This document shows, in pieces, positions 1,865-40,310 of a DNA stretch of 64,000 nt. The first letter of the stretch is position 1. Every line of letters begins with the position of its first letter. The position numbers were made by a program, and so were the translations under genes. The notes below the pieces were generated by a model that worked only from the letters and a program-made list of their open reading frames with translations, was not told where the DNA came from and made no database searches. The DNA is from an uncultured virus (IMG/VR IMGVR_UViG_3300037961_002446). Taxonomy: Duplodnaviria > Heunggongvirae > Uroviricota > Caudoviricetes. The stretch covers positions 1-64,000 of the IMG/VR virus record IMGVR_UViG_3300037961_002446. One strand, given 5' to 3'.

Positions 1865-2372
1865 CGTATCATCTCCTTTTTTCTCAAAAAATGTGGCGGA
1901 ATTTATTTGGGACTTGCGTTTTTATTTAGGTTATATGGTTTATATAAACAGAATAAAAAGTTGTTCCTTTAAATCTCCTCCTTTAAATGTTATAAGTTGC
2001 GCCCGTTTTAATTCCTGTTTGTTTAATATGCAAAGTAGTATATCTTTTAACGGTAGTATATTCTCTTTTATCCTTACTGTTGTGTAATAAGGCAAACTAG
2101 AATAAGTCTGCTGTTATCGTTTAAAGAGGCAAATTCAGAACGCATCAATACAACCTAGTTAATGCGATAATGGTCAAGGATATAATGGTATGGGCTTTGA
2201 AGGTTAAAATATTAATCAAAAAGCGCAAACTAAGAGATTTAAAGCCACTCATTTAAACGAATAGAAAAATAAAATTTTTGAAACAAAGCCATATGGTTGG
2301 GTAAAAAATTATACAAGCATATGGTATCGCTTTGCACTACCCTGCCTTTAATAGGACTTACGGGTTGTTCGG

Positions 2373-2522
2373 TTAAAAACCACAAGCCTCATTGAGCAAA
2401 CGCCAATATTCCTCCTGTTCATCATCTGTGAGCATTTCAATGATAGCCGTCCAATCTACGACCTTTAAGTATTCTTCAATTGCTGTATCTTCTAATTCTC
2501 TTATTCTCTTGTGGTTATTCAT
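2373..2522 (-). CDS. Small acidic hypothetical protein (49 aa)
   Basis: Manual translation MNNHKRIRELED...; AGGAGG SD upstream. Confidence 0.65.
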   Translation of the reverse strand: MNNHKRIRELEDTAIEEYLKVVDWTAIIEMLTDDEQEEYWRLLNEACGF

Positions 2523-2536
2523 GTTTATTCCTCCTT

Positions 2537-3247
2537 TCATGAGTGTGCTTTCTTAGCCTCTTTGACACGGTTAATAATGTCGGGAGCGCATTCGCTACGG
2601 CTTTCAGTCTTAGCATCAAAATGGCAATCAATAGATGCATTTTCAACATCATAGCCATACTTCTTAAGTTTCAAACGGCTCTCAACAGTGCCTTGAATCT
2701 TAGCCATGTCGTTCAATACTTGATTGACCATAACTTCCTCAATAGTATCTTTACGCTGAATACCGTTAGGCCTCCATGTAGTTGTGAATTTAAGAATAAC
2801 CCCACTGCTTGAATTACTTAGCCTAACAGTCATCTCCTGTTCGTTATCATAATTGATTTCATAGTCATACCATTTGTATTGCTTTCCTTCAATGTCAAAA
2901 TCAATTTCAACTACGCTACCTTCTACTTCAGTCCACTCTTTAGAGGTTTTTTCTACTTCAGCATCAACAGATTCTAGAGTCAAAAATGGGCTAAACGCAT
3001 CAAAGGCCTCATTTCTATCACTAACATATTTGGTTTCAAATACAACCTTACCGTCCATAACGATTTGATAGGTCTTCTTAGTTTCAGTTTTCTCATTGAA
3101 TCCATATGTAGGTTTGCTACCAAAATGGGTGCGTATGGTGATACCTTTCTTTTGTAGGTCATTGGCAAATTTAGCAAATTGCAGGTCGCCCATCTTCTTA
3201 CCGTAGTTAATCTTCATTGTTCTTACATAGGTTATATCGCTTGACAT
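2537..3247 (-). CDS. Hypothetical protein, cassette 1
   Basis: 236 aa ORF; TATA-like ACCCTATAG about 21-25 nt upstream of the ATG (leaderless arrangement). Confidence 0.8.
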   Translation of the reverse strand: MSSDITYVRTMKINYGKKMGDLQFAKFANDLQKKGITIRTHFGSKPTYGFNEKTETKKTYQIVMDGKVVFETKYVSDRNEAFDAFSPFLTLESVDAEVEKTSKEWTEVEGSVVEIDFDIEGKQYKWYDYEINYDNEQEMTVRLSNSSSGVILKFTTTWRPNGIQRKDTIEEVMVNQVLNDMAKIQGTVESRLKLKKYGYDVENASIDCHFDAKTESRSECAPDIINRVKEAKKAHS

Positions 3248-3364
3248 GGAAGGCTATTCAATTGACACTATAGGGTTGTAATATACAAAGTAATTACAAC
3301 CATATGGTATCGCTTTGTTAAACCCCACTAAGGGGCTACGGTAGGCATTCCGCAGTCTTTAGAT

Positions 3365-3892
3365 TCAAACTTCTTCAGATTCCTCCTCGTTTGCATCTCT
3401 CTCGGCCTTAGTAGGTCGAGGGGTGATTTGAGGCACACCAGCCTTATTCAGTTTACCGTCAAACCTACCGTCTTTGATAGATTGAACCATATATCCATGA
3501 GCCGCACTAACAAAGTGTGCAGTCATTTCTTCCATTGAATCGTAGACTCCGCCTGTGCGCCCGTGTGGAACAATAACGGCTAATAGAGTGTCATGGTATT
3601 CAGTAGGGATTGAAGCAAAAGCAGTTGCTACGGTTTCCTCCACAGTCGCCAATGCAATCTGTTGTTCCTCGTTTAGAGTTGATTCTCGGCCTTTGCGGGC
3701 TGATGGAAAACCTTCCATTGTAGAACCAATTGAACGAATTGCAGTCCAATATGTGCTTCTTAGTTCATCGCTAGCAGCGTTATCTCCCAATGTTAGGGAT
3801 AGCATAACTGCTTGCAGGTTATCGCTTGGGTCTTGCTTTTCAGCCCATGCTCTTACTTTTGCTGTATTTACATTCCAATTTGCTTGTTTCAT
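3365..3892 (-). CDS. Hypothetical early protein, paralog family A copy 1
   Basis: 175 aa; shares LRSTYWTAIRSIGST, ARKGRES and PHGRTGG with 4872-5369. Confidence 0.9.
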   Translation of the reverse strand: MKQANWNVNTAKVRAWAEKQDPSDNLQAVMLSLTLGDNAASDELRSTYWTAIRSIGSTMEGFPSARKGRESTLNEEQQIALATVEETVATAFASIPTEYHDTLLAVIVPHGRTGGVYDSMEEMTAHFVSAAHGYMVQSIKDGRFDGKLNKAGVPQITPRPTKAERDANEEESEEV

Positions 3893-4112
3893 ATTTAATT
3901 CCTCCTTATTTCTAAGATTGCTTCATGCCTACCGAAGCAATAAGGATATTATGAGGAGGTATTTGTAGGGTTGAAAACAAAGCCCAACCATATGGTATTA
4001 CTTTGGTCTAAACCCAATGCGGGGATTGTTTTTTATTTCGGCTATTTGCACATTTACCCTATGCGTGGCTCTCTTACCTGAGCGAAAACAATCAAAAACG
4101 CTCTCCACAGTA

Positions 4113-4412
4113 TCAATGAACTCGTATGAAGCCCCCGTTCCAAGCCTCACCGTTCAAATACCATTGGAAATTTCTTTGGACGATATTAACCCCACTCAAA
4201 CCGTTTAAGCGTTCTTTTGTGGTGTTAGATTGCCACCCGCCATCTTGAATGAATACACCGTTTGAAGTTCTTTCAGCGATTAAGTTCCCATGTAGTAAAA
4301 GACGAACTGAATACTCCTCACCGTCATGACCAACGATTACACGGGTATTACCTCGCTTGAAATTATATCCATTTTCAAAGGCTCTTATTGCATCATATGT
4401 TATTTGTCGCAT
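4113..4412 (-). CDS. Conserved phage-type hypothetical protein (LHGNLIA...GGWQSNTTKERLN)
   Basis: Start reassigned to ATG 4412, about 22 nt after CCCTATATA; motif familiar from early genes of aquatic phages. Confidence 0.8.
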   Translation of the reverse strand: MRQITYDAIRAFENGYNFKRGNTRVIVGHDGEEYSVRLLLHGNLIAERTSNGVFIQDGGWQSNTTKERLNGLSGVNIVQRNFQWYLNGEAWNGGFIRVH

Positions 4413-4502
4413 GGTAAGAGGTTTTTGAGTCAATATATAGGGTTGTAGCAACAAAGCCCTTACAACCATATGGTCATAACTTTGTGAAAGTGGCCATACG
4501 GC

Positions 4503-4760
4503 CTATTCTTCTCCCTCCTCATCTTTCTTATATTCTTCTTCGCAAGTGCATCTATAGCCTTCCCAATGAACCACATTTTCCATGACATAAATATCATATT
4601 CAGCAATATAGACTTCATCTTCAAACTCAATTTTATCCTTAACTTTTTCAGTTATATGATTACATCTAGGGTGGTGGTCTAGTCCATGTTCATCGGTATA
4701 TGCTTCTGCTCCTTCTGCGTAAAACGCATTAAGACAATCTTGACAACTACAAAACGCCAT
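4503..4760 (-). CDS. Acidic Cys/His-rich hypothetical protein
   Basis: 85 aa with CxCxxC, HPRC and CxC motifs; fills cassette 4. Confidence 0.75.
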   Translation of the reverse strand: MAFCSCQDCLNAFYAEGAEAYTDEHGLDHHPRCNHITEKVKDKIEFEDEVYIAEYDIYVMENVVHWEGYRCTCEEEYKKDEEGEE

Positions 4761-4871
4761 ATTAGTCCTTTTTGCTTAGGTTAGATATGGCCGCTAACCA
4801 AAGTATGCAACCATATGGTCATGCTTTGCACTGACCCCAAAAGGGGCTACGGGGGATTATCCGCATTAGAC

Positions 4872-5369
4872 TTACTTAGTAGCCTCCTTTTCTTTTACAG
4901 GCGGTGGAGTCATTTGAGGGATATTACCCTCCATGCTACCGTCCCAACGGTTTTCCTTGTAGCCCTGTGTTAGAGCGTTAAAGGCCTTTTGACCGAATGC
5001 TTCCGCCAAATCTTCAATAGATTCGTATGCGCCACCTGTGCGACCATGCGGAAGAATTACCTTAAGCATAATATCTGCATCAGTAATACCCACAAAGGCA
5101 TCGTAGACCGCATTCCTTACAGAAGTCGCAGACAGCAACACTTCTTCCGGTAATGCTGATTCTCTTCCTTTGCGAGCCATTGGGAAATCTTCAAATGTAG
5201 ACCCAATGCTTCGGATTGCAGTCCAATAAGTAGACCGCAAATCATCGTTATCACAATTGTTTCCTAGAGTAATAGACAATGTAATTGCTTGACCATTATC
5301 GCCTCTATCTTCTTTATCCAACCAAGTTTGGACTTTTGCTATGTTTATATTCCAATTTTCTGCTTTCAT
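4872..5369 (-). CDS. Hypothetical early protein, paralog family A copy 2
   Basis: 165 aa; clear paralog of 3365-3892; AGGAGG SD. Confidence 0.9.
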   Translation of the reverse strand: MKAENWNINIAKVQTWLDKEDRGDNGQAITLSITLGNNCDNDDLRSTYWTAIRSIGSTFEDFPMARKGRESALPEEVLLSATSVRNAVYDAFVGITDADIMLKVILPHGRTGGAYESIEDLAEAFGQKAFNALTQGYKENRWDGSMEGNIPQMTPPPVKEKEATK

Positions 5370-5494
5370 GTTTTTTACCTCCTAAACTATTTCAGTCAGT
5401 ATGCTTCAATCCCCCGAAGCAATAAGTCAAGTCTGAAATCGTATATGGTCGTTGTATGCAAAGCAACCCCAACCATATGGTTGTCCTTTGGCAT

Positions 5495-6066
5495 AACCCC
5501 AAATGGGGGCTACTTGGCAGGGAAAAATCTGCATTGTAATTACTATTGTTATTAATATACCAAGTGCCTTATTTGCTATGCCTCTATCATCGCTTTCTCT
5601 TCGCTTAAGGGCATGAGAATGTAAAAGAAACTCGGCCTACTCCATTCATCTCCGTCTAACTGCTATTTCTTGTTTCCCTGCAATTCGGTATACCTCCTTG
5701 CATTGTTTCCCCATTCCCGTCTTACTGCGTGGTGTTTCGGCTTTGTTTCTCTATGGTTTTATGGCCACTAATAGCCATAGGAATTTGAAAAGGTGGGATA
5801 GTGAATTGGGTATCACTAATGATGATGCGGATTCCGCCCGCATTCGGTTAGGTCGCTCCTTTTATCTAGAAGCCATCACGCCAAGTATATCCAAGTTGAT
5901 AGTTAGACAACTCCCCTTTTGAGGTTCAAGGACTTTCATAGAGCCAATTACCTCACGCTTTTACGCACTAGTAATTGGATATGTCGCACTACACGAATAC
6001 CTGCACATTACCCCCGACCAAGAGGGTATTCTGTCAATCCCTGTCGGCTCATGACTTCCGACATAT
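5495..6066 (-). ncRNA. Putative large structured non-coding RNA (about 570 nt) filling cassette 6
   Basis: No credible ORF. Promoter-like ACCATATACTG (minus strand, about 6081-6091) lies in the same position as in the coding cassettes. Several stems: 5979-5986/6059-6066, 5944-5951/5971-5978, 5825-5830/5838-5843, 5517-5525/5673-5681. Confidence 0.6.
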
Positions 6067-6171
6067 AGGAAGGTGAAAATCAGTATATGGTTCTCTCCTC
6101 CAAAGTTATTCCAACCATATGGTGTTGCTTTGTTTTACACCCTAATAATATATTCTCATTTACCGTTTACC

Positions 6172-6405
6172 ATGTCAAAGAATGCAGTAAGAAGAGTATC
6201 AAGTATTAGCCCATCAATGAAGAAAGAGGTTGAAGAAACCGTTGCTAGTGCAATTTTCACAGATTTGCACATTATGAAAGATGAACCTGATGCTATGATT
6301 GCCCTTATTACTATGGAAGCCATTTATGGTGGCGTTGATGCTGCTATCAAAGAGATTCTTATTGACCGAATGGTTGAAGATATGATGGAGGTCTTATTTA
6401 GTTAA
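6172..6405 (+). CDS. Hypothetical protein (77 aa) in the inverted cassette 7
   Basis: ATG 6172 follows ACCCTAATAATATA (6139-6152), a leaderless arrangement. Confidence 0.7.
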   Translation: MSKNAVRRVSSISPSMKKEVEETVASAIFTDLHIMKDEPDAMIALITMEAIYGGVDAAIKEILIDRMVEDMMEVLFS

Positions 6406-6407
6406 AT

Positions 6408-6590
6408 CACCTCGTCGGGTCTTATGGCCTCAATAACTGAAAGTTGTGAATGCATTAAACAATCTCAATGCCACAGTGCCGAGATGCGGTTGAGATACCG
6501 TATTTTCTATTATTGAAGTCATATATGTTTGAGGTGGGAGGACGCTCCCTTTACAAGGCAGAAAACCTTGACTACCGACACGGGGTTTTA
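6408..6590 (+). ncRNA. Putative structured RNA / 3' element (about 180 nt)
   Basis: Closing pairing CCTCGTCGG...CCGACACGGGG; internal stems CCTCAA/TTGAGG, ATCTCAA/TTGAGAT, GGGAG/CTCCC, CAAGG/CCTTG. Confidence 0.45.
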
Positions 6591-6637
6591 AACAAAGACG
6601 CAACCATATGGTATTGCTTTGTATTTACCACATAGGC

Positions 6638-6928
6638 TTAGGGGCTAAAGCCCTGAGAGATAACCAACAACTGCTCAAGTTTGTGATTTTCAAGTAATAT
6701 CTCTTTGATATATTCCTCTATTTCCTCCCATCTCCAAACTTGCATCTCATAGCCGTTTTGAGTTTGACAACACCATTCAATATAATTGAATATATTATCA
6801 AAGTCATTAATGTCTTTTGGGACGAATTGTTCGCCCTTTTCGTCCCAATAGTCAGGGTTATCACCACAATAACAGTTGAGAGTATTGCACTTAGGGCAAT
6901 CCGTCTTAATTCCAAAGTTGATACTCAT
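6638..6928 (-). CDS. Hypothetical Zn-binding protein (CPKC..CYC)
   Basis: 96 aa; ATGA-coupled to the upstream ORF. Confidence 0.7.
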   Translation of the reverse strand: MSINFGIKTDCPKCNTLNCYCGDNPDYWDEKGEQFVPKDINDFDNIFNYIEWCCQTQNGYEMQVWRWEEIEEYIKEILLENHKLEQLLVISQGFSP

Positions 6929-7110
6929 TCTTCATCTCCTCCAAATATAGCGGGCTTAACATCTGAAACAGGGTGAGCCTTTACCTTGAAACCACCCAAC
7001 GCTAAACTAACCAACTGCATATTGAGCATGGTCTTCATGTCTTCTTTATTGTCAGCCCAAAAATGAGCAACATTGTCCTTAATCATAAAATCAGTTCTTC
7101 CTTTCGGCAT
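6925..7110 (-). CDS. Small hypothetical protein
   Basis: Likely start ATG 7110 (MPKGRTDF) after AGGAGG. Confidence 0.65.
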   Translation of the reverse strand: MPKGRTDFMIKDNVAHFWADNKEDMKTMLNMQLVSLALGGFKVKAHPVSDVKPAIFGGDEE

Positions 7111-7260
7111 ATTTTTTCCTCCTTTTTTCCTTAATACTGCATCTTTCACCAAATTCGGATATTTTTCTCGCAATTACTGATTATTTTCAGAATGGGTCTA
7201 GTAAGGTCAAGACAAAGCACGACCATATGGTAGGATAGGTCAAAAGAAAGCGAGCATTCG

Positions 7261-7750
7261 TTAGACCATATATAAAACGGTGACAACTTTTAGTCTAAGA
7301 TATTACACCCCGTTTCTCATACTTCTCATTTGGGTATCATTCAATTGGGCTTATATGAATAAATATACCATGTTATATCTTATATTATTATATTAATATA
7401 TTATAATGTCCGATGTTTCTCATCAAAAATTCCAAGTGAGAAGAGAATAATCTCCCAAAAAATGACCTAGTTATAGGAATAAGTAATACATTTTTACTAT
7501 TATTCTCATATTTCTCATTTCTCTTCTTCTTCTTCTTCTTTTTACTCTCTCTCCCTATGCCTTAATTATAACTAGGTCAATTTTACCCTACTTATATGGG
7601 AGAGAGGATAATATATATTGATAAGAGTCATGAGAAATGAGAATAATGAGAAAGGTTTGGCTAACTAGGGCAAAATCGTATGAGTTGTCGGGATAACTAG
7701 GTCAAAATTACTTCTCATGCAAAAACGAGAACTATTATGAGAACTATTAG
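7261..7750. other. Putative replication origin (iterons plus AT-rich tract) at the divergent strand switch
   Basis: About 10 TTCTCAT/ATGAGAA copies in both orientations; 4 copies of TAACTAGG[TG]CA (7463 rc, 7569, 7662, 7694); near-pure AT tract 7373-7407; no ORF. Confidence 0.6.
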
Positions 7751-7844
7751 ACAACATTTTCATCACCAAACCCCATTAATTGCTAATAACTAAGGGTAGG
7801 CTTATTAATTCTTTGAGTGAAAATACGGCTTAGTGCCTCTTTTC

Positions 7845-7860
7845 TGAACCCATTTATATA
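7845..7860 (+). promoter_or_regulatory. Archaeal-type promoter TGAACCCATTTATATA
   Basis: TATA box heading the plus-strand arm; the same motif recurs at 15441 and 32386. Confidence 0.7.
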
Positions 7861-7892
7861 GTGTTAAAGATTGTCAAAGATGGTGGAAACAC

Positions 7893-8138
7893 ATGGATAA
7901 CGATGACCCTACAATTAAGGCACTCCAAGAAGGAGCATATTTGTTGTTTGATAAGGAACAGGAATGGTTCACTCATCATTACAATATGGTCGCATTGGCG
8001 AGAGCATTAGTTAATTCAGGACACCTACCCGATATGGACGCACTTCTATATTACATAGAAAAACCATACAAGTGGACTGCTGAATGGGAACATTATGCTG
8101 AATATGGTTACACCCACAACTATGATGAAGGAGAATGA
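7893..8138 (+). CDS. Hypothetical protein
   Basis: 81 aa ORF downstream of the promoter. Confidence 0.7.
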   Translation: MDNDDPTIKALQEGAYLLFDKEQEWFTHHYNMVALARALVNSGHLPDMDALLYYIEKPYKWTAEWEHYAEYGYTHNYDEGE

Positions 8139-8142
8139 TAAA

Positions 8143-8601
8143 ATGAATGATACAGAATGGAATAGCCTCAAGATTGAGGTAAACGAATACCTAGAAGCCG
8201 ATACAAGTTTAGATGCAGGTCTAAAACAGATTTGTGAATTGAATCTAACCATCGGTGATTCTAACCCAAGTGAAAGAGAAGCGGCAAAAGGAGCATTGAA
8301 GGCTCTATTGAAAGGAAGAGATGGAACACCTTTTAGAAAGGGGCAAAAGTCTTCTATCCCTGCTTCGGTAAGAGTTGTAATTGACCAAATAGTTGCAGTA
8401 GTTGAAGAAGCATCAACTGTTTACTTTAACCAAGACCCAATTATCGGTGCTATTACTAAGAAACAAAACAGAAGTGGCGGTGGCTTTTATGCTGATGCAG
8501 AAGAATATGCAAAGGCCGAAGGAAACCGAGCAAGAAACCGTCTAGCCAAGTGGTATAAAGACAAGGAATGGGACGGCAATAAAGATTCACTTCTTTCTTG
8601 A
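8143..8601 (+). CDS. Paralog family A copy 3 (divergent)
   Basis: Aligns with 3365/4872: W..., LTIGD, PFRKGQKSS, NRSGGGFY, WDG. Start moved to ATG 8143 after AGGAG. Confidence 0.8.
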   Translation: MNDTEWNSLKIEVNEYLEADTSLDAGLKQICELNLTIGDSNPSEREAAKGALKALLKGRDGTPFRKGQKSSIPASVRVVIDQIVAVVEEASTVYFNQDPIIGAITKKQNRSGGGFYADAEEYAKAEGNRARNRLAKWYKDKEWDGNKDSLLS

Positions 8602-18250: not shown

Positions 18251-19411
18251 ATGGAAATAAGAATAAGAAAAGCAAACGATGGTGGAGGACACTATACTAC
18301 AACTATTAGTTGTAAAGACGCAGTAAGGTCTAGAGATACTACTATACCTATGTTAAGACAAGCAAAAGACCCTATTCATGCAGGTATTGTTCAGTTTTGG
18401 CAGAAGTCGTTATCTACTCGTAGTAATTACTATGCTGATTTTAGTATGCCTAGCAGATATAATACTGTAATTATGATAGGAACTTGTCCTGTTGCTATTG
18501 AGAAAACTAAGAACCGCTACTACATTAATGGTAAGCCTGAAAACCTTGCTTCTATTTGTCATGTATTGGCTAGACTAACATACAAGTCTTGTTTTGAAAA
18601 AGACCCTGCTAAACTAATGAAGAGTGTTTATGCGAGTCTTGCTATACCTGAAAATGTAAAGTATGTTTTGGAAAACAGATTCCCATATTTCTTCTATGAT
18701 AATTATGTCAAGTATGAAGTAAGGCTTCCTGTTATGATGATTGGTGATGATGAAGTCGCAATAGAAGTAGCAGATGGAGTTTGGGGAACATTAACCATCA
18801 AACAACTAGTCAAGTTATGTTCTTTCTATGTAGAAGGTAAAAAGAGAGGTAAACTAAAGTATCTTTCACCTTCTAAGTTGTATGAATTAACTATGGGTAG
18901 AAAGCCCCTAGATTCTGATTTGAAGGTGATGCTTGAGTTCCTTAAACAAAACCGAATGAAGGATATTGTAGATAAAAGAGCCATTGAATTAGTTAATGAC
19001 TTGTTGCTACAACACGGAGGTAGACTCAAAGCAGAATATGATGATAATGGTCAGCCTGAAACTATCTATGTTAGAGGTAAAGACTATGATTGGAAACTTA
19101 CTTCTAACTCATATAAATCAGACATACAGATGGTTTCTACATTCGTTTGGCAACCTGATTATGTTGATGAAACTGTATTAGATGAAAACGGAGAAGAAAC
19201 AGACCAAACTATTAGAGTTCAAAACGGTGCTTCATGGAAAGGGCCGATATGTATAGATAATATGGCTTCAGGTTCTCCATTGGGCGACCAATTTGCGGCT
19301 AGAGCATTAGCATTATTGAACGATTCCTTTACAATAACAATAGTAAATACAATAAAACGGTATTTGACCGAGAATAAGAATGAATGTAGGTTTGATATGA
19401 ATGAAGTGTAG
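18251..19411 (+). CDS. Conserved protein; C-terminal domain is a candidate E2 (UBC-like)
   Basis: 386 aa; GPICIDNM...SPLG...LLND resembles the E2 active-site pattern G.ICLDIL...WSP...LL.D. The CDS is solid; the function is tentative. Confidence 0.45.
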   Translation: MEIRIRKANDGGGHYTTTISCKDAVRSRDTTIPMLRQAKDPIHAGIVQFWQKSLSTRSNYYADFSMPSRYNTVIMIGTCPVAIEKTKNRYYINGKPENLASICHVLARLTYKSCFEKDPAKLMKSVYASLAIPENVKYVLENRFPYFFYDNYVKYEVRLPVMMIGDDEVAIEVADGVWGTLTIKQLVKLCSFYVEGKKRGKLKYLSPSKLYELTMGRKPLDSDLKVMLEFLKQNRMKDIVDKRAIELVNDLLLQHGGRLKAEYDDNGQPETIYVRGKDYDWKLTSNSYKSDIQMVSTFVWQPDYVDETVLDENGEETDQTIRVQNGASWKGPICIDNMASGSPLGDQFAARALALLNDSFTITIVNTIKRYLTENKNECRFDMNEV

Positions 19412-20255
19412 TGAATGTGGTTCAATTAAAATTACCTTTGACGAAAGGTTAGGAGAAAAGTGTTGTGCTGAATGTGGTTTAGTCCTCATTACAGGAATGT
19501 TTGAAGAAACAGTTTCACCTGTAGAAAGAGGCGAAGGCTACAATGTAAAACATAGTGCTGATAAAGGAAAGTTAGGTTCTATTATTACAGGTAGAGGTTC
19601 TAGTAAATTTGCTAGGTCTAACCAAAATAGGTCAAGACACATTGTTGCAGGTATAGCACATTGTAATATGGTAATGTCTAGTCTAAAACTACCGATGAAT
19701 CTTTCTGAAAGAATAGAAAAGGTGTATATGGAGTTGTATAGGCTTCATATGCTACGCTCGTTTACTCTTGAAGAAAGAGCAACTGCTATTGTGTTTTATG
19801 TTCTGAAAGAAAACGGAACACCACAACCAATGAAAGAAGTTGCTTCTGAATTCCAAGTAAATGTAAACAGGTCTATGAAACTAGTTAGGAAGATAAATCA
19901 GTTCTTTAGAAACTCAATCCACTATGCTCATGAAGATGGGACTTTCTTAATGCAACAAACTGCGAGAAAGATTACAGATGAACCTCAGTTTATCCATCAA
20001 TGTCATAAAGTCATGGAGCATTTTGAAGCGAAAGTAATTACTTCTGACTTTAACAAAGGCCGATGCTATTATGCGGCTATGTCTGTTATTGCTACAGAAG
20101 TGTTTGTGAGAGGATATTCTTGTAAGTATATTGCTGAAAAGACAGGATTCCACAGGACTAAGATTGGTAAAGAATGTAAGAAGATACTTGCTTTGATTGG
20201 AGTAGATTCAGTCAAAGAATTGAAAGGTCAAGAACTTAGTAAAATAGGTGAATAA
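19401..20255 (+). CDS. tfb: Transcription factor B (TFB/TFIIB)-like protein
   Basis: N-terminal Zn ribbon CSECG...GEKCCAECGLV followed by two cyclin-fold-like repeats. Confidence 0.85.
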   Translation: MKCSECGSIKITFDERLGEKCCAECGLVLITGMFEETVSPVERGEGYNVKHSADKGKLGSIITGRGSSKFARSNQNRSRHIVAGIAHCNMVMSSLKLPMNLSERIEKVYMELYRLHMLRSFTLEERATAIVFYVLKENGTPQPMKEVASEFQVNVNRSMKLVRKINQFFRNSIHYAHEDGTFLMQQTARKITDEPQFIHQCHKVMEHFEAKVITSDFNKGRCYYAAMSVIATEVFVRGYSCKYIAEKTGFHRTKIGKECKKILALIGVDSVKELKGQELSKIGE

Positions 20256-36617: not shown

Positions 36618-38270
36618 ATGATAATTAGTAAAATGGAAGATGGAAAAACAATTTACAAAGCATGGAGAGAAAACGGAGAGAGGAGATTTGAGCAAGTCAA
36701 ATTCAGACCGTATTTCTTTGTTGAGCAGACTGAAACCGAGAAGCCTCAATACAGACCTAGTAAATATATTACTAGAGAGTTTGAGTATCTTCATGGTGAT
36801 TGGGTTAATATTGACGGCACACCACTAAAGAAAGTGTTTGTAGATAACTCCTACGATATTAGAAAGGCTAAAGATAAGTTTTCTAAAACATATGAGGCTG
36901 ATGTGCCTTATCACTTTAGATACTGTGTAGATGAACTACATGATATGCCTGAATATGATATGCGTAAGTGGTATTGGGATATGGAATGGCAACAAGGCGG
37001 AGAACATGATGGTAAGATTACTACTATTGTAGCGTATGATAATTATGATAAGCAGTATCATCATTGGGTTTGGTTTCCTAATAAATACAAACATGAAATT
37101 GACAAGACAAAACCAAAATATGTTTTTGGTTCTGAAAAAGAAATGATTGCACATTTCATGACAACTATGGTTGTAAAAGACCCTGATATGTTGATTGCTT
37201 GGTTTGGTAATTTTGCTGATGTTCCTAAACTTCTTGAAAGAGCGTGTGCAGTAGGACTTAATCCATTGATTATGTCGCCTATTGGTTCTATCAAAGGTAT
37301 TAGAAAAACTAAGAATGAAGGGTTCAAGTTTCTTTACTATGATAATGGGTTTTCACCAATTGAACAACCTATTGGAGGAAGAATTACTTTGAATCTTGAT
37401 ATGGCGTTTGAGCGTCAATGGAATGATTCACAAAGAGGAACGCTACCTTCGCTATCTTTGGATTATGTATCGGAAGAAGTATTGGGTAAGAACAAATTAG
37501 TATCTGAAAAGTTTCCTGACCCTAACGAGTTTTATCGTAGAGCGTGGCTAGAAGATACAGAAACTTATCTTGAATATGCTTTGTTAGATGTAGAACTAAT
37601 GGTAGAAATTGATGAATCAAACTATTGTAGTGAGGCTATTCTAGCACTTCAAAGGCTACTAAAAGCACCATTTGATGCTTGCTTTTTTGCTTCCCACATG
37701 GGTAGTATTTACTTCATGAGAAATGCTTGGTGGAAAGCACCAACAGGAAACAAGAAAGAAAAGAAACAAGCGTATCAAGGGGCTATGATATATGACCCAC
37801 TTAGCGAAGGAACAAACGGATTACATCTTAATGTAGCCGCTTTTGATTTCGCAGGTCTATATCCTAGTATGATGATTGCTAGAAATATTAGTTGGGAAAC
37901 TATTTCTGATGAGCCTACGGAGTTTGGTGTTAATATTCTAACTCCTAGAGATTTCAGCGAACCTGTAGGTGAGGATATGATTTACTTCAAAACAGACAAG
38001 TTGGGACTATTGCCTAGAGCAGTATTAGAACTTAAAGAACTAAGAAATGAATACAAAGCCAAAATGAAAGAGGCTAGAGGAAAACCAAACGGTGAGTATA
38101 TGAAATGGTATAATAATCAAATGGCAGTTAAGAGGCTATCTGCATCTTTCTACGGCATCATTGGATTTACAGGGTTTAGTTGGGCTAATCCAAAACTAGC
38201 CGCTAGTATTACTGCTAGTGCTAGAGAAGCAATTAGATTAGCCGCATTTAAAGCGAAGGAGATGGAATAA
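36618..38270 (+). CDS. polB: Family B DNA polymerase, N-terminal part (3'-5' exonuclease plus motifs A and B)
   Basis: WDME (ExoI), NFAD (ExoII), YALLD (ExoIII), FDFAGLYPS (A), K...ASFYG (B); ends before motif C. Confidence 0.93.
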   Translation: MIISKMEDGKTIYKAWRENGERRFEQVKFRPYFFVEQTETEKPQYRPSKYITREFEYLHGDWVNIDGTPLKKVFVDNSYDIRKAKDKFSKTYEADVPYHFRYCVDELHDMPEYDMRKWYWDMEWQQGGEHDGKITTIVAYDNYDKQYHHWVWFPNKYKHEIDKTKPKYVFGSEKEMIAHFMTTMVVKDPDMLIAWFGNFADVPKLLERACAVGLNPLIMSPIGSIKGIRKTKNEGFKFLYYDNGFSPIEQPIGGRITLNLDMAFERQWNDSQRGTLPSLSLDYVSEEVLGKNKLVSEKFPDPNEFYRRAWLEDTETYLEYALLDVELMVEIDESNYCSEAILALQRLLKAPFDACFFASHMGSIYFMRNAWWKAPTGNKKEKKQAYQGAMIYDPLSEGTNGLHLNVAAFDFAGLYPSMMIARNISWETISDEPTEFGVNILTPRDFSEPVGEDMIYFKTDKLGLLPRAVLELKELRNEYKAKMKEARGKPNGEYMKWYNNQMAVKRLSASFYGIIGFTGFSWANPKLAASITASAREAIRLAAFKAKEME

Positions 38271-38858
38271 ATGGGGTGTGTTTATTTTGTTAAACATAAG
38301 GGATTAGACCCTATTAAAATAGGAATGTCTACCTACAACAATCCTTTTCATAGGGTAGTAGATATGGAAGTTGCTAGTCCTTTTGGCATAGAATTATTAG
38401 GGTTTATTAAAACTGACAATCCCCTAAAATTAGAAAAAAAATATCATTCTAAATTTAGTTCTTCATGTATCAAAGGTGAATGGTTTTCTATACCAATAGA
38501 ACAAGTATATTCTATACTAGAATACCATAATGGTAAAAATGTAATGTCACAAATTGCTGCTTTAATTGAAGAACTAGAAATTTCTCCTAGAGAAGCACTT
38601 GAATTAATTGCGAAACAAAGAAAAGGTTTTCATGTTGATGTTGATGTTCACAATGCTTTTAGGAACATTTATTCTGATTTAGTAAAAACTACTAATTCAA
38701 GGTGGGTTTCCAAAAAAGAACTAATAGACCAATATTGTAAAAAGGTTAGGCGAAGTAAGGCGCAAGCATACAGACATTTTAAAAAAATAGAAAATACTTT
38801 TTTAACTCATAGTAAAAACAGAAAAACACTTATCAAAGCAAAGGAGATGAAAATATGA
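38271..38858 (+). CDS. T5orf172/MUG113 (GIY-YIG-like) nuclease domain fused to a winged helix
   Basis: GCVYFV...IKIG.S...R...LE...H..F......GEWF; inserted between the polB halves. Confidence 0.8.
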   Translation: MGCVYFVKHKGLDPIKIGMSTYNNPFHRVVDMEVASPFGIELLGFIKTDNPLKLEKKYHSKFSSSCIKGEWFSIPIEQVYSILEYHNGKNVMSQIAALIEELEISPREALELIAKQRKGFHVDVDVHNAFRNIYSDLVKTTNSRWVSKKELIDQYCKKVRRSKAQAYRHFKKIENTFLTHSKNRKTLIKAKEMKI

Positions 38859-39399
38859 AGTGCTTAAATTGTGGTCATGGAGAAATGACTTTAAAATTCT
38901 ACCAACCCCGTAAAACGGGATATACACATCAAAAGGAGAAAGCAGTTTTTCTTTGTCCTGTATGTGGTCATAAGGAGTTGTTTGGATTATGAGAACTAAA
39001 ATAGTAACAGTAAAGGTATCATATGATACCGAAGAAACATGGGATATAACATTACAAGAAGTAAAAGAGATATTTCAGATGATGAATAATCTAAAGCGTA
39101 ATGCTATTATCTTAGACATTGAACAAGGTGTAAATCATGATGATGGACAAAACGAATGAATTACTTGAGGAGTTGTTGAATATGATAGCAAAATCAAATA
39201 GAATACTAATGATGGTTAATATTGTAAATATAGTGACCATAATAACAATAGTGACGGTGGTAGTATGATATGTGCTATGGAAGGTTGTAATTGTAATGCA
39301 GTTAAAACACCTTTGTTTGAGAAATACTATTGTTTTGATTGCCGTTATACTTTTGAATTAATAATGGACGATATGAGAAATATGGAGTTGAGCGAATGA
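38855..39399 (+). CDS. Four tiny coupled ORFs between the polB halves (Zn ribbon 38855-38992; 38989-39159; TM peptide 39137-39268; Cys-rich 39265-39399)
   Basis: Manual translation; overlapping start/stop codons. Confidence 0.55.
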
Positions 39400-40310
39400 A
39401 AGTAGTTTACGGACATACAGATTCAATCTATGTGCAAATAGATTCAGTAGAGAAGGCTCAAGAGGCTATCAAAGAGATAGAAGCAAGCGTTAGAGAACAC
39501 TTCCCTAATGTTCTAGGACTCAATGAACACCCTGTAGTATTGGAGTTTGAGAAGTATTACAATGCTCTAGGAGTCGGGACAGTAAAGAACCGAAACGCAG
39601 GTATGATTACTTGGGAAGATGGTAATTGGCTTGATGAACCTAAGTTCACAATGACAGGATTCATAGCAAAAAGAGTATCAGAAACAAAGATGGCCAAAGA
39701 AGTTCAAACAAAAACGCTTCAAATGTGGGCTAATCAACAACCGATGGAGAAAATAAACGCCTATTTGCATAGGACTTATGTTAGTGTCTTGAATGGAAAC
39801 TACGATTTCACGAAGTTAATCAAGAGAACACGCCTAAAAGAGGCTCGTTTCTCGGTTAAATGTCCTGATTGCGGTAGAAAATATGCCTTAAAAGACCTTC
39901 TAAATGTTAGAGTATGCGGTCAAAACGAAGGAAAAAATGGAATTCATAAGTGTGGTGAGAGAGTTTCTGTCTTTACTACTCTTGAAGATAAGAAGCCAAC
40001 CATAGGTTCAGGAGTTGCAGGGGTTATCAACGCATGGCAAAATACAGATATTGAGTTTGATGATAGTTATTTGTTCTTGAAGGTAAAGAATTCAGGTATG
40101 ACTTATGTTAATCCCTTGACTAAGGAAAAGAAACCTGCTGAATTTATCTCAGGAAGAGTCTTTGCTGATTTCAAAGATTACACTCCTGATTGGGAACACT
40201 ATGCTCAACAAGTCGTAGATAAAGCAAAGCCTGTGTATGAGGCTATGGGTTGGGATTTATCATCTATTAGAACAGGAAGAATACAGAAGAGTTTGGAGGA
40301 ATGGTTTTGA
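39396..40310 (+). CDS. polB: Family B DNA polymerase, C-terminal part (motif C, thumb)
   Basis: Starts MKVVYGHTDSIYV; LEFEK, KNRNAG; Cys4 insertion CPDC...C...C. Confidence 0.92.
   Translation: MKVVYGHTDSIYVQIDSVEKAQEAIKEIEASVREHFPNVLGLNEHPVVLEFEKYYNALGVGTVKNRNAGMITWEDGNWLDEPKFTMTGFIAKRVSETKMAKEVQTKTLQMWANQQPMEKINAYLHRTYVSVLNGNYDFTKLIKRTRLKEARFSVKCPDCGRKYALKDLLNVRVCGQNEGKNGIHKCGERVSVFTTLEDKKPTIGSGVAGVINAWQNTDIEFDDSYLFLKVKNSGMTYVNPLTKEKKPAEFISGRVFADFKDYTPDWEHYAQQVVDKAKPVYEAMGWDLSSIRTGRIQKSLEEWF

Follow-up and report, generated by a model that had tools for sequence, protein, structure and literature searches.

A palindromic junction motif in an array of exchangeable small-gene cassettes of a magrovirus-like genome

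The cassette array and its junctions

The stretch of DNA analysed here (64,000 nucleotides, referred to below as the window) represents bases 1-64000 of the IMG/VR record IMGVR_UViG_3300037961_002446, a linear genome of an uncultured virus that comprises 94,178 bp, is rated complete by CheckV and appears to be that of a group-B-like magrovirus. Close to its left end, between positions 2284 and 7231, we find an array of small genes divided into units, termed here cassettes, by a recurrent palindromic junction motif centred on CATATG. The genes of the array (2373-7110) are encoded on the minus strand, with the exception of 6172-6405, which is on the plus strand (Table 1).

The seven full sites follow the pattern CAAAG-N(5-9)-CCATATGG-N(5-6)-CTTTG, in which the spacer between the 8-mer core CCATATGG and CTTTG is 5 nt long in six sites and 6 nt in one, and the left spacer varies from 5 to 9 nt. 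The core occurs in nine copies in the whole 94,178-bp genome, all of them inside 2289-7223. A search on both strands with the 11-mer AACCATATGGT, allowing at most one mismatch, yields 19 matches against 1.29 expected, and none of 100 shuffled sequences reaches 19. At the left end, a perfect core (2289-2296) directly joined by CAAAG (2284-2288) lies beside the degenerate site 2314-2334, so that this end is a double site. A preliminary description of the locus, made by a model from the sequence alone, had listed the seven full sites, the degenerate left end and a right end at 7213-7231 lacking CTTTG, and its coordinates proved exact. Its statement that all sites share the same polarity holds for the seven full sites but not for the site at 7223, whose fixed spacer lies on its left and which has the opposite polarity. 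It assigned one or two small open reading frames (ORFs) or an RNA to most cassettes; two intervals are free of ORFs (5500-6100 and 6420-6592), the former containing a manA-like RNA.

Table 1. Junctions and cassettes of the array (for the seven full sites, the start is the first base of CAAAG and the end the last base of CTTTG)
Feature	Start	End	Strand	Description
Left-end double junction	2284	2334		CAAAG and CCATATGG (core 2289-2296), then degenerate core GCATATGG (2317-2324) with CTTTG (2330-2334)
Cassette 1	2373	3247	-	236-aa ORF 2537-3247 (family 2), ATG (apparently leaderless) 52 nt from core 3300; then 49-55-aa ORF 2373-2540 (family 29)
Junction	3286	3317		Core 3300-3307; on the minus side a 9-bp hairpin with CTTTG loop, then CTATAG as putative TATA box; on the plus side a CCCC/GGGG hairpin ending the next unit
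Cassette 2	3365	3892	-	175-aa ORF, family 0 paralogue; hairpin in the 5' untranslated region (UTR), AGGAGG
Junction	3978	4005		Core 3988-3995; both spacers 5 nt, 11-6-11 geometry
Cassette 3	4113	4412	-	99-aa ORF, Pfam Kyano_Gp96 / phrog_554; ATG (apparently leaderless) 53 nt from core 4466
Junction	4452	4484		Core 4466-4473; 7-bp hairpin, then CTATATAT
Cassette 4	4503	4760	-	85-aa Cys-rich ORF (family 24)
Junction	4799	4828		Core 4811-4818
Cassette 5	4872	5369	-	165-aa ORF, second family 0 paralogue
Junction	5459	5490		Core 5473-5480; 14-bp perfect palindrome CAACCATATGGTTG
Cassette 6	5500	6063	-	Non-coding; manA-like RNA 5790-6063, its 5' end 51 nt from core 6115
Junction	6101	6132		Core 6115-6122; divergent, predicted promoter on each side
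Cassette 7a	6172	6405	+	77-aa ORF (family 10), leaderless ATG 49 nt from core 6115
Cassette 7b	6420	6592	-	Interval of ~170 nt without ORF, downstream of junction 6604
Junction	6593	6621		Core 6604-6611
Cassette 8	6638	7110	-	Two ORFs: 96 aa, Zn-ribbon-like (family 90), and 61 aa (family 89)
Right-end junction	7213	7231		Core 7223-7230; CAAAG and core, no CTTTG; opposite polarity, faces the rightward gene arm; ACCATATATAAAA ~35 nt to the right

Occurrence of the motif in related viruses

A search of IMG/VR with the pattern CAAAG-N4-ACCATATGGTTG identified 108 stretches on 70 contigs, many of them 87-97 kb long, and each locus fetched contains 4-15 cores. Five complete relatives possess 9-11 cores each, of which all but 0-1 per genome fall into one array of 3.3-4.5 kb; the reversed control pattern gave no match. 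The whole-genome scan that had been proposed in the preliminary description thus reveals a single array both here and in the five complete relatives, so that the motif is not a genome-wide operator. Only 6 of 403 cores are found inside conserved ORFs. Among 130 junctions with conserved genes on both sides, 86 separate tandem, 28 divergent and 16 convergent genes, which shows that the units are placed in either orientation.

In the GTDB representative genomes a strict 21-nt pattern matches 34 stretches, 31 of which have a single core and which belong mostly to unrelated bacteria; no match is titled Poseidoniales, with the reservation that a host regulon using only the 10-bp core would escape such a pattern. 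Two contigs of metagenome-assembled genomes (MAGs) carry the motif as well: an array, with 5-7 cores in each of three overlapping loci, is present on a 14.7-kb contig assigned to a marine Altibacter MAG, and a 71.6-kb contig of a Rhodobacterales MAG has 3 cores. Both are probably misbinned magrovirus DNA.

Promoter geometry and hairpins

Read along the minus strand, the stop codon of a unit is followed by a G/C hairpin with Ts, then by CAAAG, four bases and ACCATATGGTTG, then by a variable spacer and CTTTG, and finally by a box such as CAACCCTATA or ACCATATAC. By direct reading, a G/C hairpin of 4-5 bp with Ts stands ahead of the motif at six of the seven tandem junctions. The TATA-like sequences "just inside one arm" and the CCCC/GGGG hairpins of the preliminary description are indeed present, but their assignment had to be mended: because the genes run on the minus strand, the TATA box would be the promoter of the unit on the left, and the hairpins are the 3' ends of the units on the right. 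The ORFs 2537-3247 and 4113-4412, whose start codons are 52 and 53 nt away from the core, have no Shine-Dalgarno sequence and therefore look leaderless; other units have a 5' UTR and AGGAGG.

The same geometry is found family-wide. In 119 unique sites an ATG located 44-56 nt from the core, on either side, opens an ORF of at least 40 aa, and as the ATG peaks appear on both sides, the core is a bidirectional landmark. An initial orientation rule (based on CAAAG-N4 and TTG) was dropped as a poor predictor of the downstream gene, with 115 genes in the same and 60 in the opposite direction. Analysis of the sequence between core and start revealed a hairpin that begins with the core's GG, has CTTTG in its loop and closes further downstream with a second arm whose last bases are ACC. 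At least five contiguous Watson-Crick pairs are formed in 65 of the 119 promoter-side sites, compared with 12% when the partners are permuted, and these 65 sites have 32 distinct arm sequences; applied to all 852 core sides, the same test gives 34.5% versus 8.4%. The covariation of arbitrary arm sequences indicates that selection acts on self-complementarity. The mismatches in these hairpins (G.T versus A.C, 5 versus 2) are small numbers for the question of whether the DNA or the RNA strand folds. The distance of CTTTG from the core is fixed on terminator-facing sides (113/202) and varies with stem length on promoter-facing sides.

The end of the hairpin lies 26-31 nt from the ATG in 54 of the 65 sites, and the position matrix at this point reads W-A-C-C|Y-T-A-W-N-W-A-A. 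The archaeal TATA box sits about 26 nt upstream of the transcript start, and the spacing between box and start fits an archaeal TATA promoter. The strict ACC+TATA pattern shows no genome-wide enrichment (9 matches versus 13.4 in shuffled sequences), nor does the bacterial sigma-70 consensus (11 matches versus 17.4 expected); the count of bacterial terminator-like sites (5 versus 4.1 expected) is uninformative.

Outside the array, the ORF 19401-20255 (plus strand) contains a TFIIB zinc ribbon (Pfam, 5.3e-6) and the first cyclin repeat. It matches the archaeal TFB model of NCBIfam with 3.6e-8, at a score far under the cutoff of that model, and human and Pyrococcus TFIIB/TFB chains with 1.4e-4 and 4e-3, respectively. 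The TFB homologue is kept in all five complete relatives (40-70% identity). The ACCATATGGTTG-type core, ACC-ATAT-GGT, resembles two back-to-back boxes of the ACC+AT-rich kind that precede the starts, and one may speculate that the viral TFB homologue reads the ACC+TATA boxes. The terms "TFIIB" and "TFB" do not occur in PMC10160649 or PMC5434244, the two magrovirus papers covered by this check (PMC11706807 was outside it).

Conserved-loop hairpins next to genes also bring to mind phage N4, in which hairpins act as promoters for a virion-borne polymerase. According to such an explanation, the junctions would be single-strand or hairpin signals, serving either as promoters of a virion-borne polymerase or in priming and replication near the origin. 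The position of the array, which adjoins an AT-rich iteron region at the GC-skew minimum, is compatible with the second variant, and a 2223-aa ORF in the structural module that lacks a family match could be invoked for the first. This ORF, however, has no match in Pfam or PHROG and no polymerase signature, the TATA boxes stand at the archaeal distance from the starts, and the sites are spaced by genes, one per unit, rather than clustered at the putative origin. We regard this explanation as highly improbable.

Exchange of units

In order to follow the fate of individual units, we grouped ORFs into families and mapped the arrays, using assembled contigs for the metagenome and metatranscriptome comparisons. 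Among 52 arrays there are 49 distinct cassette orders, and the Kyano_Gp96-type gene alone has 13 different neighbour contents in 19 arrays. In the two closest relatives (70-87% identity), seven consecutive high-scoring segment pairs (HSPs) begin or end at junctions; their order of families is 2, 0b, 9, RNA, (78), 0a, 1, 10, as compared with 2, 0a, 1, 24, 0b, RNA, 10, (90, 89) in this genome. Judging from the alignment, the difference is one block transposition plus insertions and deletions, all bounded by junctions. Inversion is exemplified by cassette 4 (gene 24): in contig 3300025889_000118 it has the opposite orientation with respect to its neighbour. The view of the cassettes as exchangeable modules, put forward in the preliminary description, is borne out by these data: order, number and orientation differ among relatives, and homology breaks at the CATATG-centred core. 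A fixed gene order with breakpoints unrelated to the motif, which would have spoken against it, is not what the alignments show.

Breakpoints coincide with the core also on the family-wide scale. Of 2,322 alignment ends, 31% lie at most 20 nt from a core, as opposed to 8% of random positions. For alignments of 85-99.5% identity that end at most 150 nt from a core (n=112), 51 ends fall at -4..+20 and none at -40..-4. In 27 pairs of junctions that are ≥85% identical on one side and ≤45% on the other, the first mismatch occurs 0-3 nt past the core in 19 and at most 7 nt past it in 24. The most precise case is provided by contig 3300037427_001697, in which cores 6358 and 6796 enclose a cassette of 438 bp that is absent from 3300030376_003859. 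The empty site of the latter has the left flank of the first core and the right flank (100%) of the second, with the switch inside the common 11-nt sequence TACCATATGGT. Finally, a 4,033-nt metagenome contig (95-97% identical to the window) contains about 400 extra nucleotides at junction 3978-4005, with the motif flanking both sides. Among the DNA loose ends listed, 12 in number, five are at motif edges (2265, 3330, 3979, 4006, 4807) and seven elsewhere.

Several joints that could be taken for deletions or circles (2299>3299, 2304>3295, 3229>6601, 4599>7756 and 3325>2550) were rejected, as their shorter side comprises only 21-31 letters and matches the repeated motif itself; another, 3310>2353, corresponds to the 2317 site of a relative.

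Interpretation of the junction

Pfam and NCBIfam scans of the ORFs of the whole genome detect no tyrosine or serine recombinase, HUH enzyme or transposase, and six-frame searches with PF00589, PF00239 and PF01797, in which the positive controls matched (14/14 for PF00589), find none of these families in any of the five complete genomes. The remark in the preliminary description that no recombinase is visible in the window therefore extends to the whole genome and to the five complete genomes. The recombination genes that we did find encode a PDDEXK_1/Cas4-like nuclease (2.3e-16), an ERCC4 nuclease with a helix-hairpin-helix domain (ERCC4-HhH, 4.3e-15) and a weak match to a Sak4-like annealase (2.4e-5).

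These results lead us to the following explanation, which we consider probable: the junction is a punctuation mark of a hyperplastic region of accessory genes, similar to the promoter-early stem-loop cassettes (PeSLs) of T4-type phages and built from archaeal parts. It would consist of four elements. First, a short G/C hairpin with Ts would close the previous unit. It is followed by the quasi-palindrome CAAAG-N-ACCATATGGT-N-CTTTG, and then by a short hairpin whose arms differ between sites but covary; this hairpin is closed by pairing of the core's GG with an ACC further downstream, and its loop contains CTTTG. The fourth element would be an archaeal TATA box straight behind the ACC. The transcript would start 26-31 nt further on, with a leaderless ATG or a 5' UTR or, in an RNA unit, with the RNA itself. 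The palindrome could be bound by a dimeric factor, which would mark or insulate the unit and aid its promoter; in this respect the protein-binding or insulator role that the preliminary description held in reserve has been taken up as part of our reading. The TFB homologue encoded by the virus is one candidate for the reader of the ACC+TATA boxes. The palindrome is the only sequence common to all units, is symmetric and is flanked by hairpin-forming DNA, and it is hence also the point at which units have been gained, lost, transposed and inverted. The exchange itself would most likely proceed through breakage or short-homology annealing at the fragile palindrome, carried out by general recombination proteins; in the genes predicted we see no sign of a dedicated integrase. 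In this reading the motif, its restriction to a single array, the constant spacing to the starts, the covarying hairpins and the rearrangements with their breakpoints are observed in the sequences; promoter activity, the binding of a factor and the mode of recombination are inferences.

A number of observations weigh against this explanation. The covarying arms point to selection on a strand that folds or on a cruciform, which a plain double-stranded operator does not require, and 16 of the 130 junctions lie between converging gene ends, where no promoter is needed. Homologous recombination of the ordinary kind would call for more than the identity shared at the crossovers (about 11 bp and two arms of 5 nt), and the 44 of 130 junctions that are divergent or convergent are not predicted by PeSL-type recombination between direct repeats. 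Some breakpoints are located elsewhere: 15 of the 112 HSP ends fall at -80..-40 from the core, at a start codon or terminator, and the 4,033-nt contig mentioned above lacks 2367-2549 (including the small ORF 2373-2540; 19 other letters stand in its place), i.e. it has an indel away from the core. Gene 24 is 90.7% identical to its inverted copy elsewhere, but its promoter is unrelated from the start codon on. Moreover, BLAST runs through any conserved motif, which inflates the +4..+20 peak, and selection for intact units alone could confine the surviving breakpoints to the ~30 nt between terminator and promoter. Placement in either orientation, cores at junctions that need no promoter and an 11-bp crossover, taken together, fit a symmetric break-and-join point better than recombination between long direct repeats. 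With regard to the missing small ORF, we found that its family sits behind a different gene in other contigs, which suggests that small ORFs also move within units, away from the palindrome.

The artefact of alignment extension is also an argument for an alternative in which the junction is purely regulatory. It would serve one temporal class of genes as operator, insulator or upstream activating site, without any particular propensity for recombination, and breakpoints would coincide with it only because no other intergenic sequence is conserved and selection preserves intact units. The tight geometry with respect to TATA boxes and starts, the confinement to one gene block beside the divergence of both gene arms and the TFB homologue in 5/5 relatives are all in keeping with this view. 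It does not account for the precise indel, which resolves to an 11-nt core between near-identical flanks, for 49 orders in 52 arrays or for the cores at the 16 convergent junctions, and a duplex operator has no use for the hairpin covariation. In our estimation this alternative is quite improbable.

The opposite alternative makes exchange the primary function: the junction would be a dedicated site-specific recombination site used by the host XerA (as on dif and pdif) or by an unrecognised viral enzyme, the array a gene-capture platform and the link to promoters secondary. Crossovers inside the 8-11-bp core agree with such a site, whose symmetric centre predicts orientation-blind exchange, as seen in the 28 divergent and 16 convergent junctions out of 130; it would also place cores at converging gene ends regardless of any promoter, and the covarying hairpins recall sites that are recognised by their structure. 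With 5-nt spacers, the motif becomes an 11-6-11 inverted repeat of 28 bp, the architecture of bacterial and archaeal dif sites as given in excerpts of PMC2958812. However, both arms have this spacing in only 21 of 426 cores (one arm in 208), neither the five complete genomes nor the Pfam and NCBIfam scans contain a tyrosine or serine recombinase or a Y1 HUH enzyme, the strict motif has no match titled Poseidoniales among the GTDB representatives, and recombination alone leaves the fixed distance to the TATA box and start codon unexplained. We judge a dedicated site to be rather unlikely, but it is the foremost of the alternatives. Slightly less likely is its extended form, in which the core and the loop-conserved hairpins would be the substrate of orientation-blind site-specific exchange in archaeal viruses, by host XerA or an unrecognised enzyme, and the array a gene-capture platform with a portable archaeal promoter; if true, foreign genes could be enabled by such a promoter to function in archaeal hosts. 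The only candidates for an array-linked enzyme of site-specific exchange are the family 0 proteins, which have no informative fold match.

Cargo of the cassettes

Family 0 comprises proteins of 147-232 aa with acidic C-terminal tails (105 members on 47 contigs). In the window it is represented by 3365-3892 and 4872-5369 (both on the minus strand) and by 8095-8601 (plus strand); one copy keeps a syntenic position where the rightward arm begins, and the others travel with cassettes. The predicted model is all-alpha, with a predicted local distance difference test (pLDDT) score of 91. No PDB match was found with Foldseek at E<=1e-3, and the PDB profile search and the Atlas returned nothing. The best VIA match (Z 7.7) was discarded as uninformative, since it spans only a generic N-terminal 3-helix bundle. 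For family 2 (pLDDT 86) the best Z is 6.5; TBP-like folds reach Z ~5, as do numerous alpha+beta folds unrelated to them, and we make no claim about it.

The product of the Kyano_Gp96/phrog_554 gene (4113-4412) matches proteins in 418 phage records at no more than 50% identity. Of these records, 380 are named Synechococcus, Prochlorococcus or "Cyanophage" and another 31 come from Pseudomonas phages. In those Pseudomonas phage records of 40 kb that are listed and begin at the conventional end, the match is located at 1.2-1.7 kb. Judging from this distribution of homologs, Kyano_Gp96/phrog_554 is an accessory family of bacterial and archaeal viruses.

The manA model (RF01745) aligns to 5790-6063 over its full length (1-192) with an 87-nt insert, 41.9 bits and an E-value of 4e-9. 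As this score is below the gathering score of 55.2 bits, we call the RNA manA-like rather than a member of manA. It forms a unit of its own, with about 300 nt of non-coding sequence behind the RNA, and its 5' end (6063) is at the same distance from the core as the leaderless ATGs of other units. Similar RNAs are present in the loci of six out of eight relatives (43.7-53.9 bits). According to excerpts of PMC2864571, manA is known almost only from marine metagenomes and T4-like cyanophages, plus two gamma-proteobacteria. The Kyano_Gp96 gene and the manA-like RNA thus have their sole recognised relatives in (cyano)phage-associated families, and the array may be a place where genes of bacterial viruses become expressible in an archaeal host. 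At the nucleotide level, the region 2200-7400 has no match in GenBank phage records.

Contigs from RNA libraries of one sample cover 2510-3015, 3425-3851, 5176-5352 and 5791-6062, i.e. genes 2, 0a, 0b and the manA-like RNA. The highest depth figures among them belong to the manA-like RNA, although contigs cannot rank expression. The bins with most cores are left uncovered and one contig ends at 6062, but as the contigs come from one study only, neither the gaps nor this end are evidence of termination or of a start. The greatest depth among the RNA contigs is that of a 194-nt metatranscriptome contig from 5791-5954, which reads 5855-5954 and then 5791-5884, i.e. jumps back by 164 nt. It fits a circular path of 164 nt, and could represent a circular RNA from this manA-like stretch, a tandem variant or an artefact of assembly.

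Genome context

Pfam matches in the whole genome include a Cpn60/TCP-1 chaperonin, an archaeal-type ATP-dependent DNA ligase, an RFC-like clamp loader, a class II ribonucleotide reductase, and tail tube, portal, protease, capsid and terminase genes. The family-B DNA polymerase (PolB) is split into two genes, 36618-38270 and 39396-40310. A single tRNA-Arg is the only Rfam match at the gathering threshold. Excerpts of Philosof et al. (PMC5434244) list a split polymerase, a ribonucleotide reductase and tRNA-Arg as traits of group B magroviruses. Magroviruses as a whole rank, according to the same source, with the most abundant viruses of archaea in the surface ocean. Because this genome shares the group B traits, the assumption of a magrovirus in the preliminary description seems reasonable. 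Between the two PolB halves lies a T5orf172/MUG113 gene of the GIY-YIG type (38271-38858, plus strand).

The gene arms diverge, leftward from ~7.2 kb and rightward from ~7.9 kb, and the cumulative GC skew has its minimum there. The AT-rich non-coding stretch between them (7232-7890) contains TTCTCAT iterons in opposed clusters (7313-7331 and 7503-7523 versus 7621-7653 and 7737-7751) as well as ATAACTAGGTCA repeats; it is a candidate for the origin of replication. Another palindromic intergenic element, ACCCTATATAGG...CCNCCAYAGGGT, is present in two copies in the rightward arm (minus strand, ~9204 and ~12844), one of them right behind tRNA-Arg.

Comparison with known systems

The main texts of the magrovirus papers PMC11706807, PMC10160649 and PMC5434244 do not mention promoters, palindromes or intergenic elements. 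The words "motif" and "repeat" are absent from PMC5434244, "cassette" from PMC11706807 and "hypervariable" from PMC10160649; in PMC11706807 "motif" occurs twice and "repeat" eight times, with reference to helix-turn-helix (HTH) motifs and terminal repeats. A literature search for the motif string or for gene shuffling in archaeal viruses gave nothing relevant among the papers listed, in agreement with the opinion voiced in the preliminary description that such an array had not been described in archaeal viruses. Nor did we find anything in print, within the papers searched, on how magroviruses regulate their accessory genes or create diversity among them. For an uncultured virus-host pair, the junction offers a testable promoter and boundary signal; it also maps a hot spot of accessory-gene shuffling with a resolution of ~11 bp, and suggests that modular evolution of the PeSL kind has arisen with archaeal transcription parts.

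The term "integron-like" and the analogy to attC sites, both used in the preliminary description, are not retained: a separate promoter is predicted for each unit, and the searches described above detected neither a tyrosine or serine recombinase nor a Y1 HUH enzyme. The array resembles an integron as a series of small exchangeable units with structured, partly palindromic sites at which the breakpoints fall. It differs in the lack of a detectable integrase, in having separate promoters instead of the common Pc, and in its invariant sequence core, whereas the identity of attC is mainly structural.

The pdif (dif) modules provide an Xer-related parallel. The best copies of the motif share with dif the 28-bp inverted repeat of 11-6-11 architecture (PMC2958812, excerpts) and a central point of exchange, and if a host enzyme were used, the lack of a viral recombinase would be accounted for. 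In contrast to dif, only 21/426 cores have both arms so spaced (in the window 3978-4005 fits), and the site is welded to promoters.

Operators and upstream activating sites of archaea and their viruses are similar in that a palindrome just upstream of the B recognition element (BRE) and TATA box is common to a set of viral promoters; Sta1, for instance, reportedly acts on SIRV1 promoters. Here, however, the palindrome is also found at junctions between two terminators, is flanked by covarying hairpins and coincides with breakpoints.

Among the three analogies considered in the preliminary description, the best fit is to the PeSLs of T4-type phages (Arbiol et al. 2010, PMC2839356; Comeau et al. 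2014, PMC4122927). According to the abstracts of these papers, a PeSL is likewise an element combining terminator and promoter, located between non-essential, mostly ORFan genes of a hyperplastic region; relatives differ by insertions, deletions and replacements bounded by the element, and no dedicated recombinase is involved. The differences concern the promoter, which is predicted to be of the archaeal TATA type here and is sigma-70-like in PeSLs, the domain of the host and the lineage of the virus (magrovirus versus T4-type myovirus). They extend to the invariant 10-bp palindrome, the CAAAG/CTTTG arms, the covarying hairpins, the crossovers of ~11 bp and the inversions seen here. By this comparison the array is not a member of the PeSL family, but PeSLs are its closest analogue.

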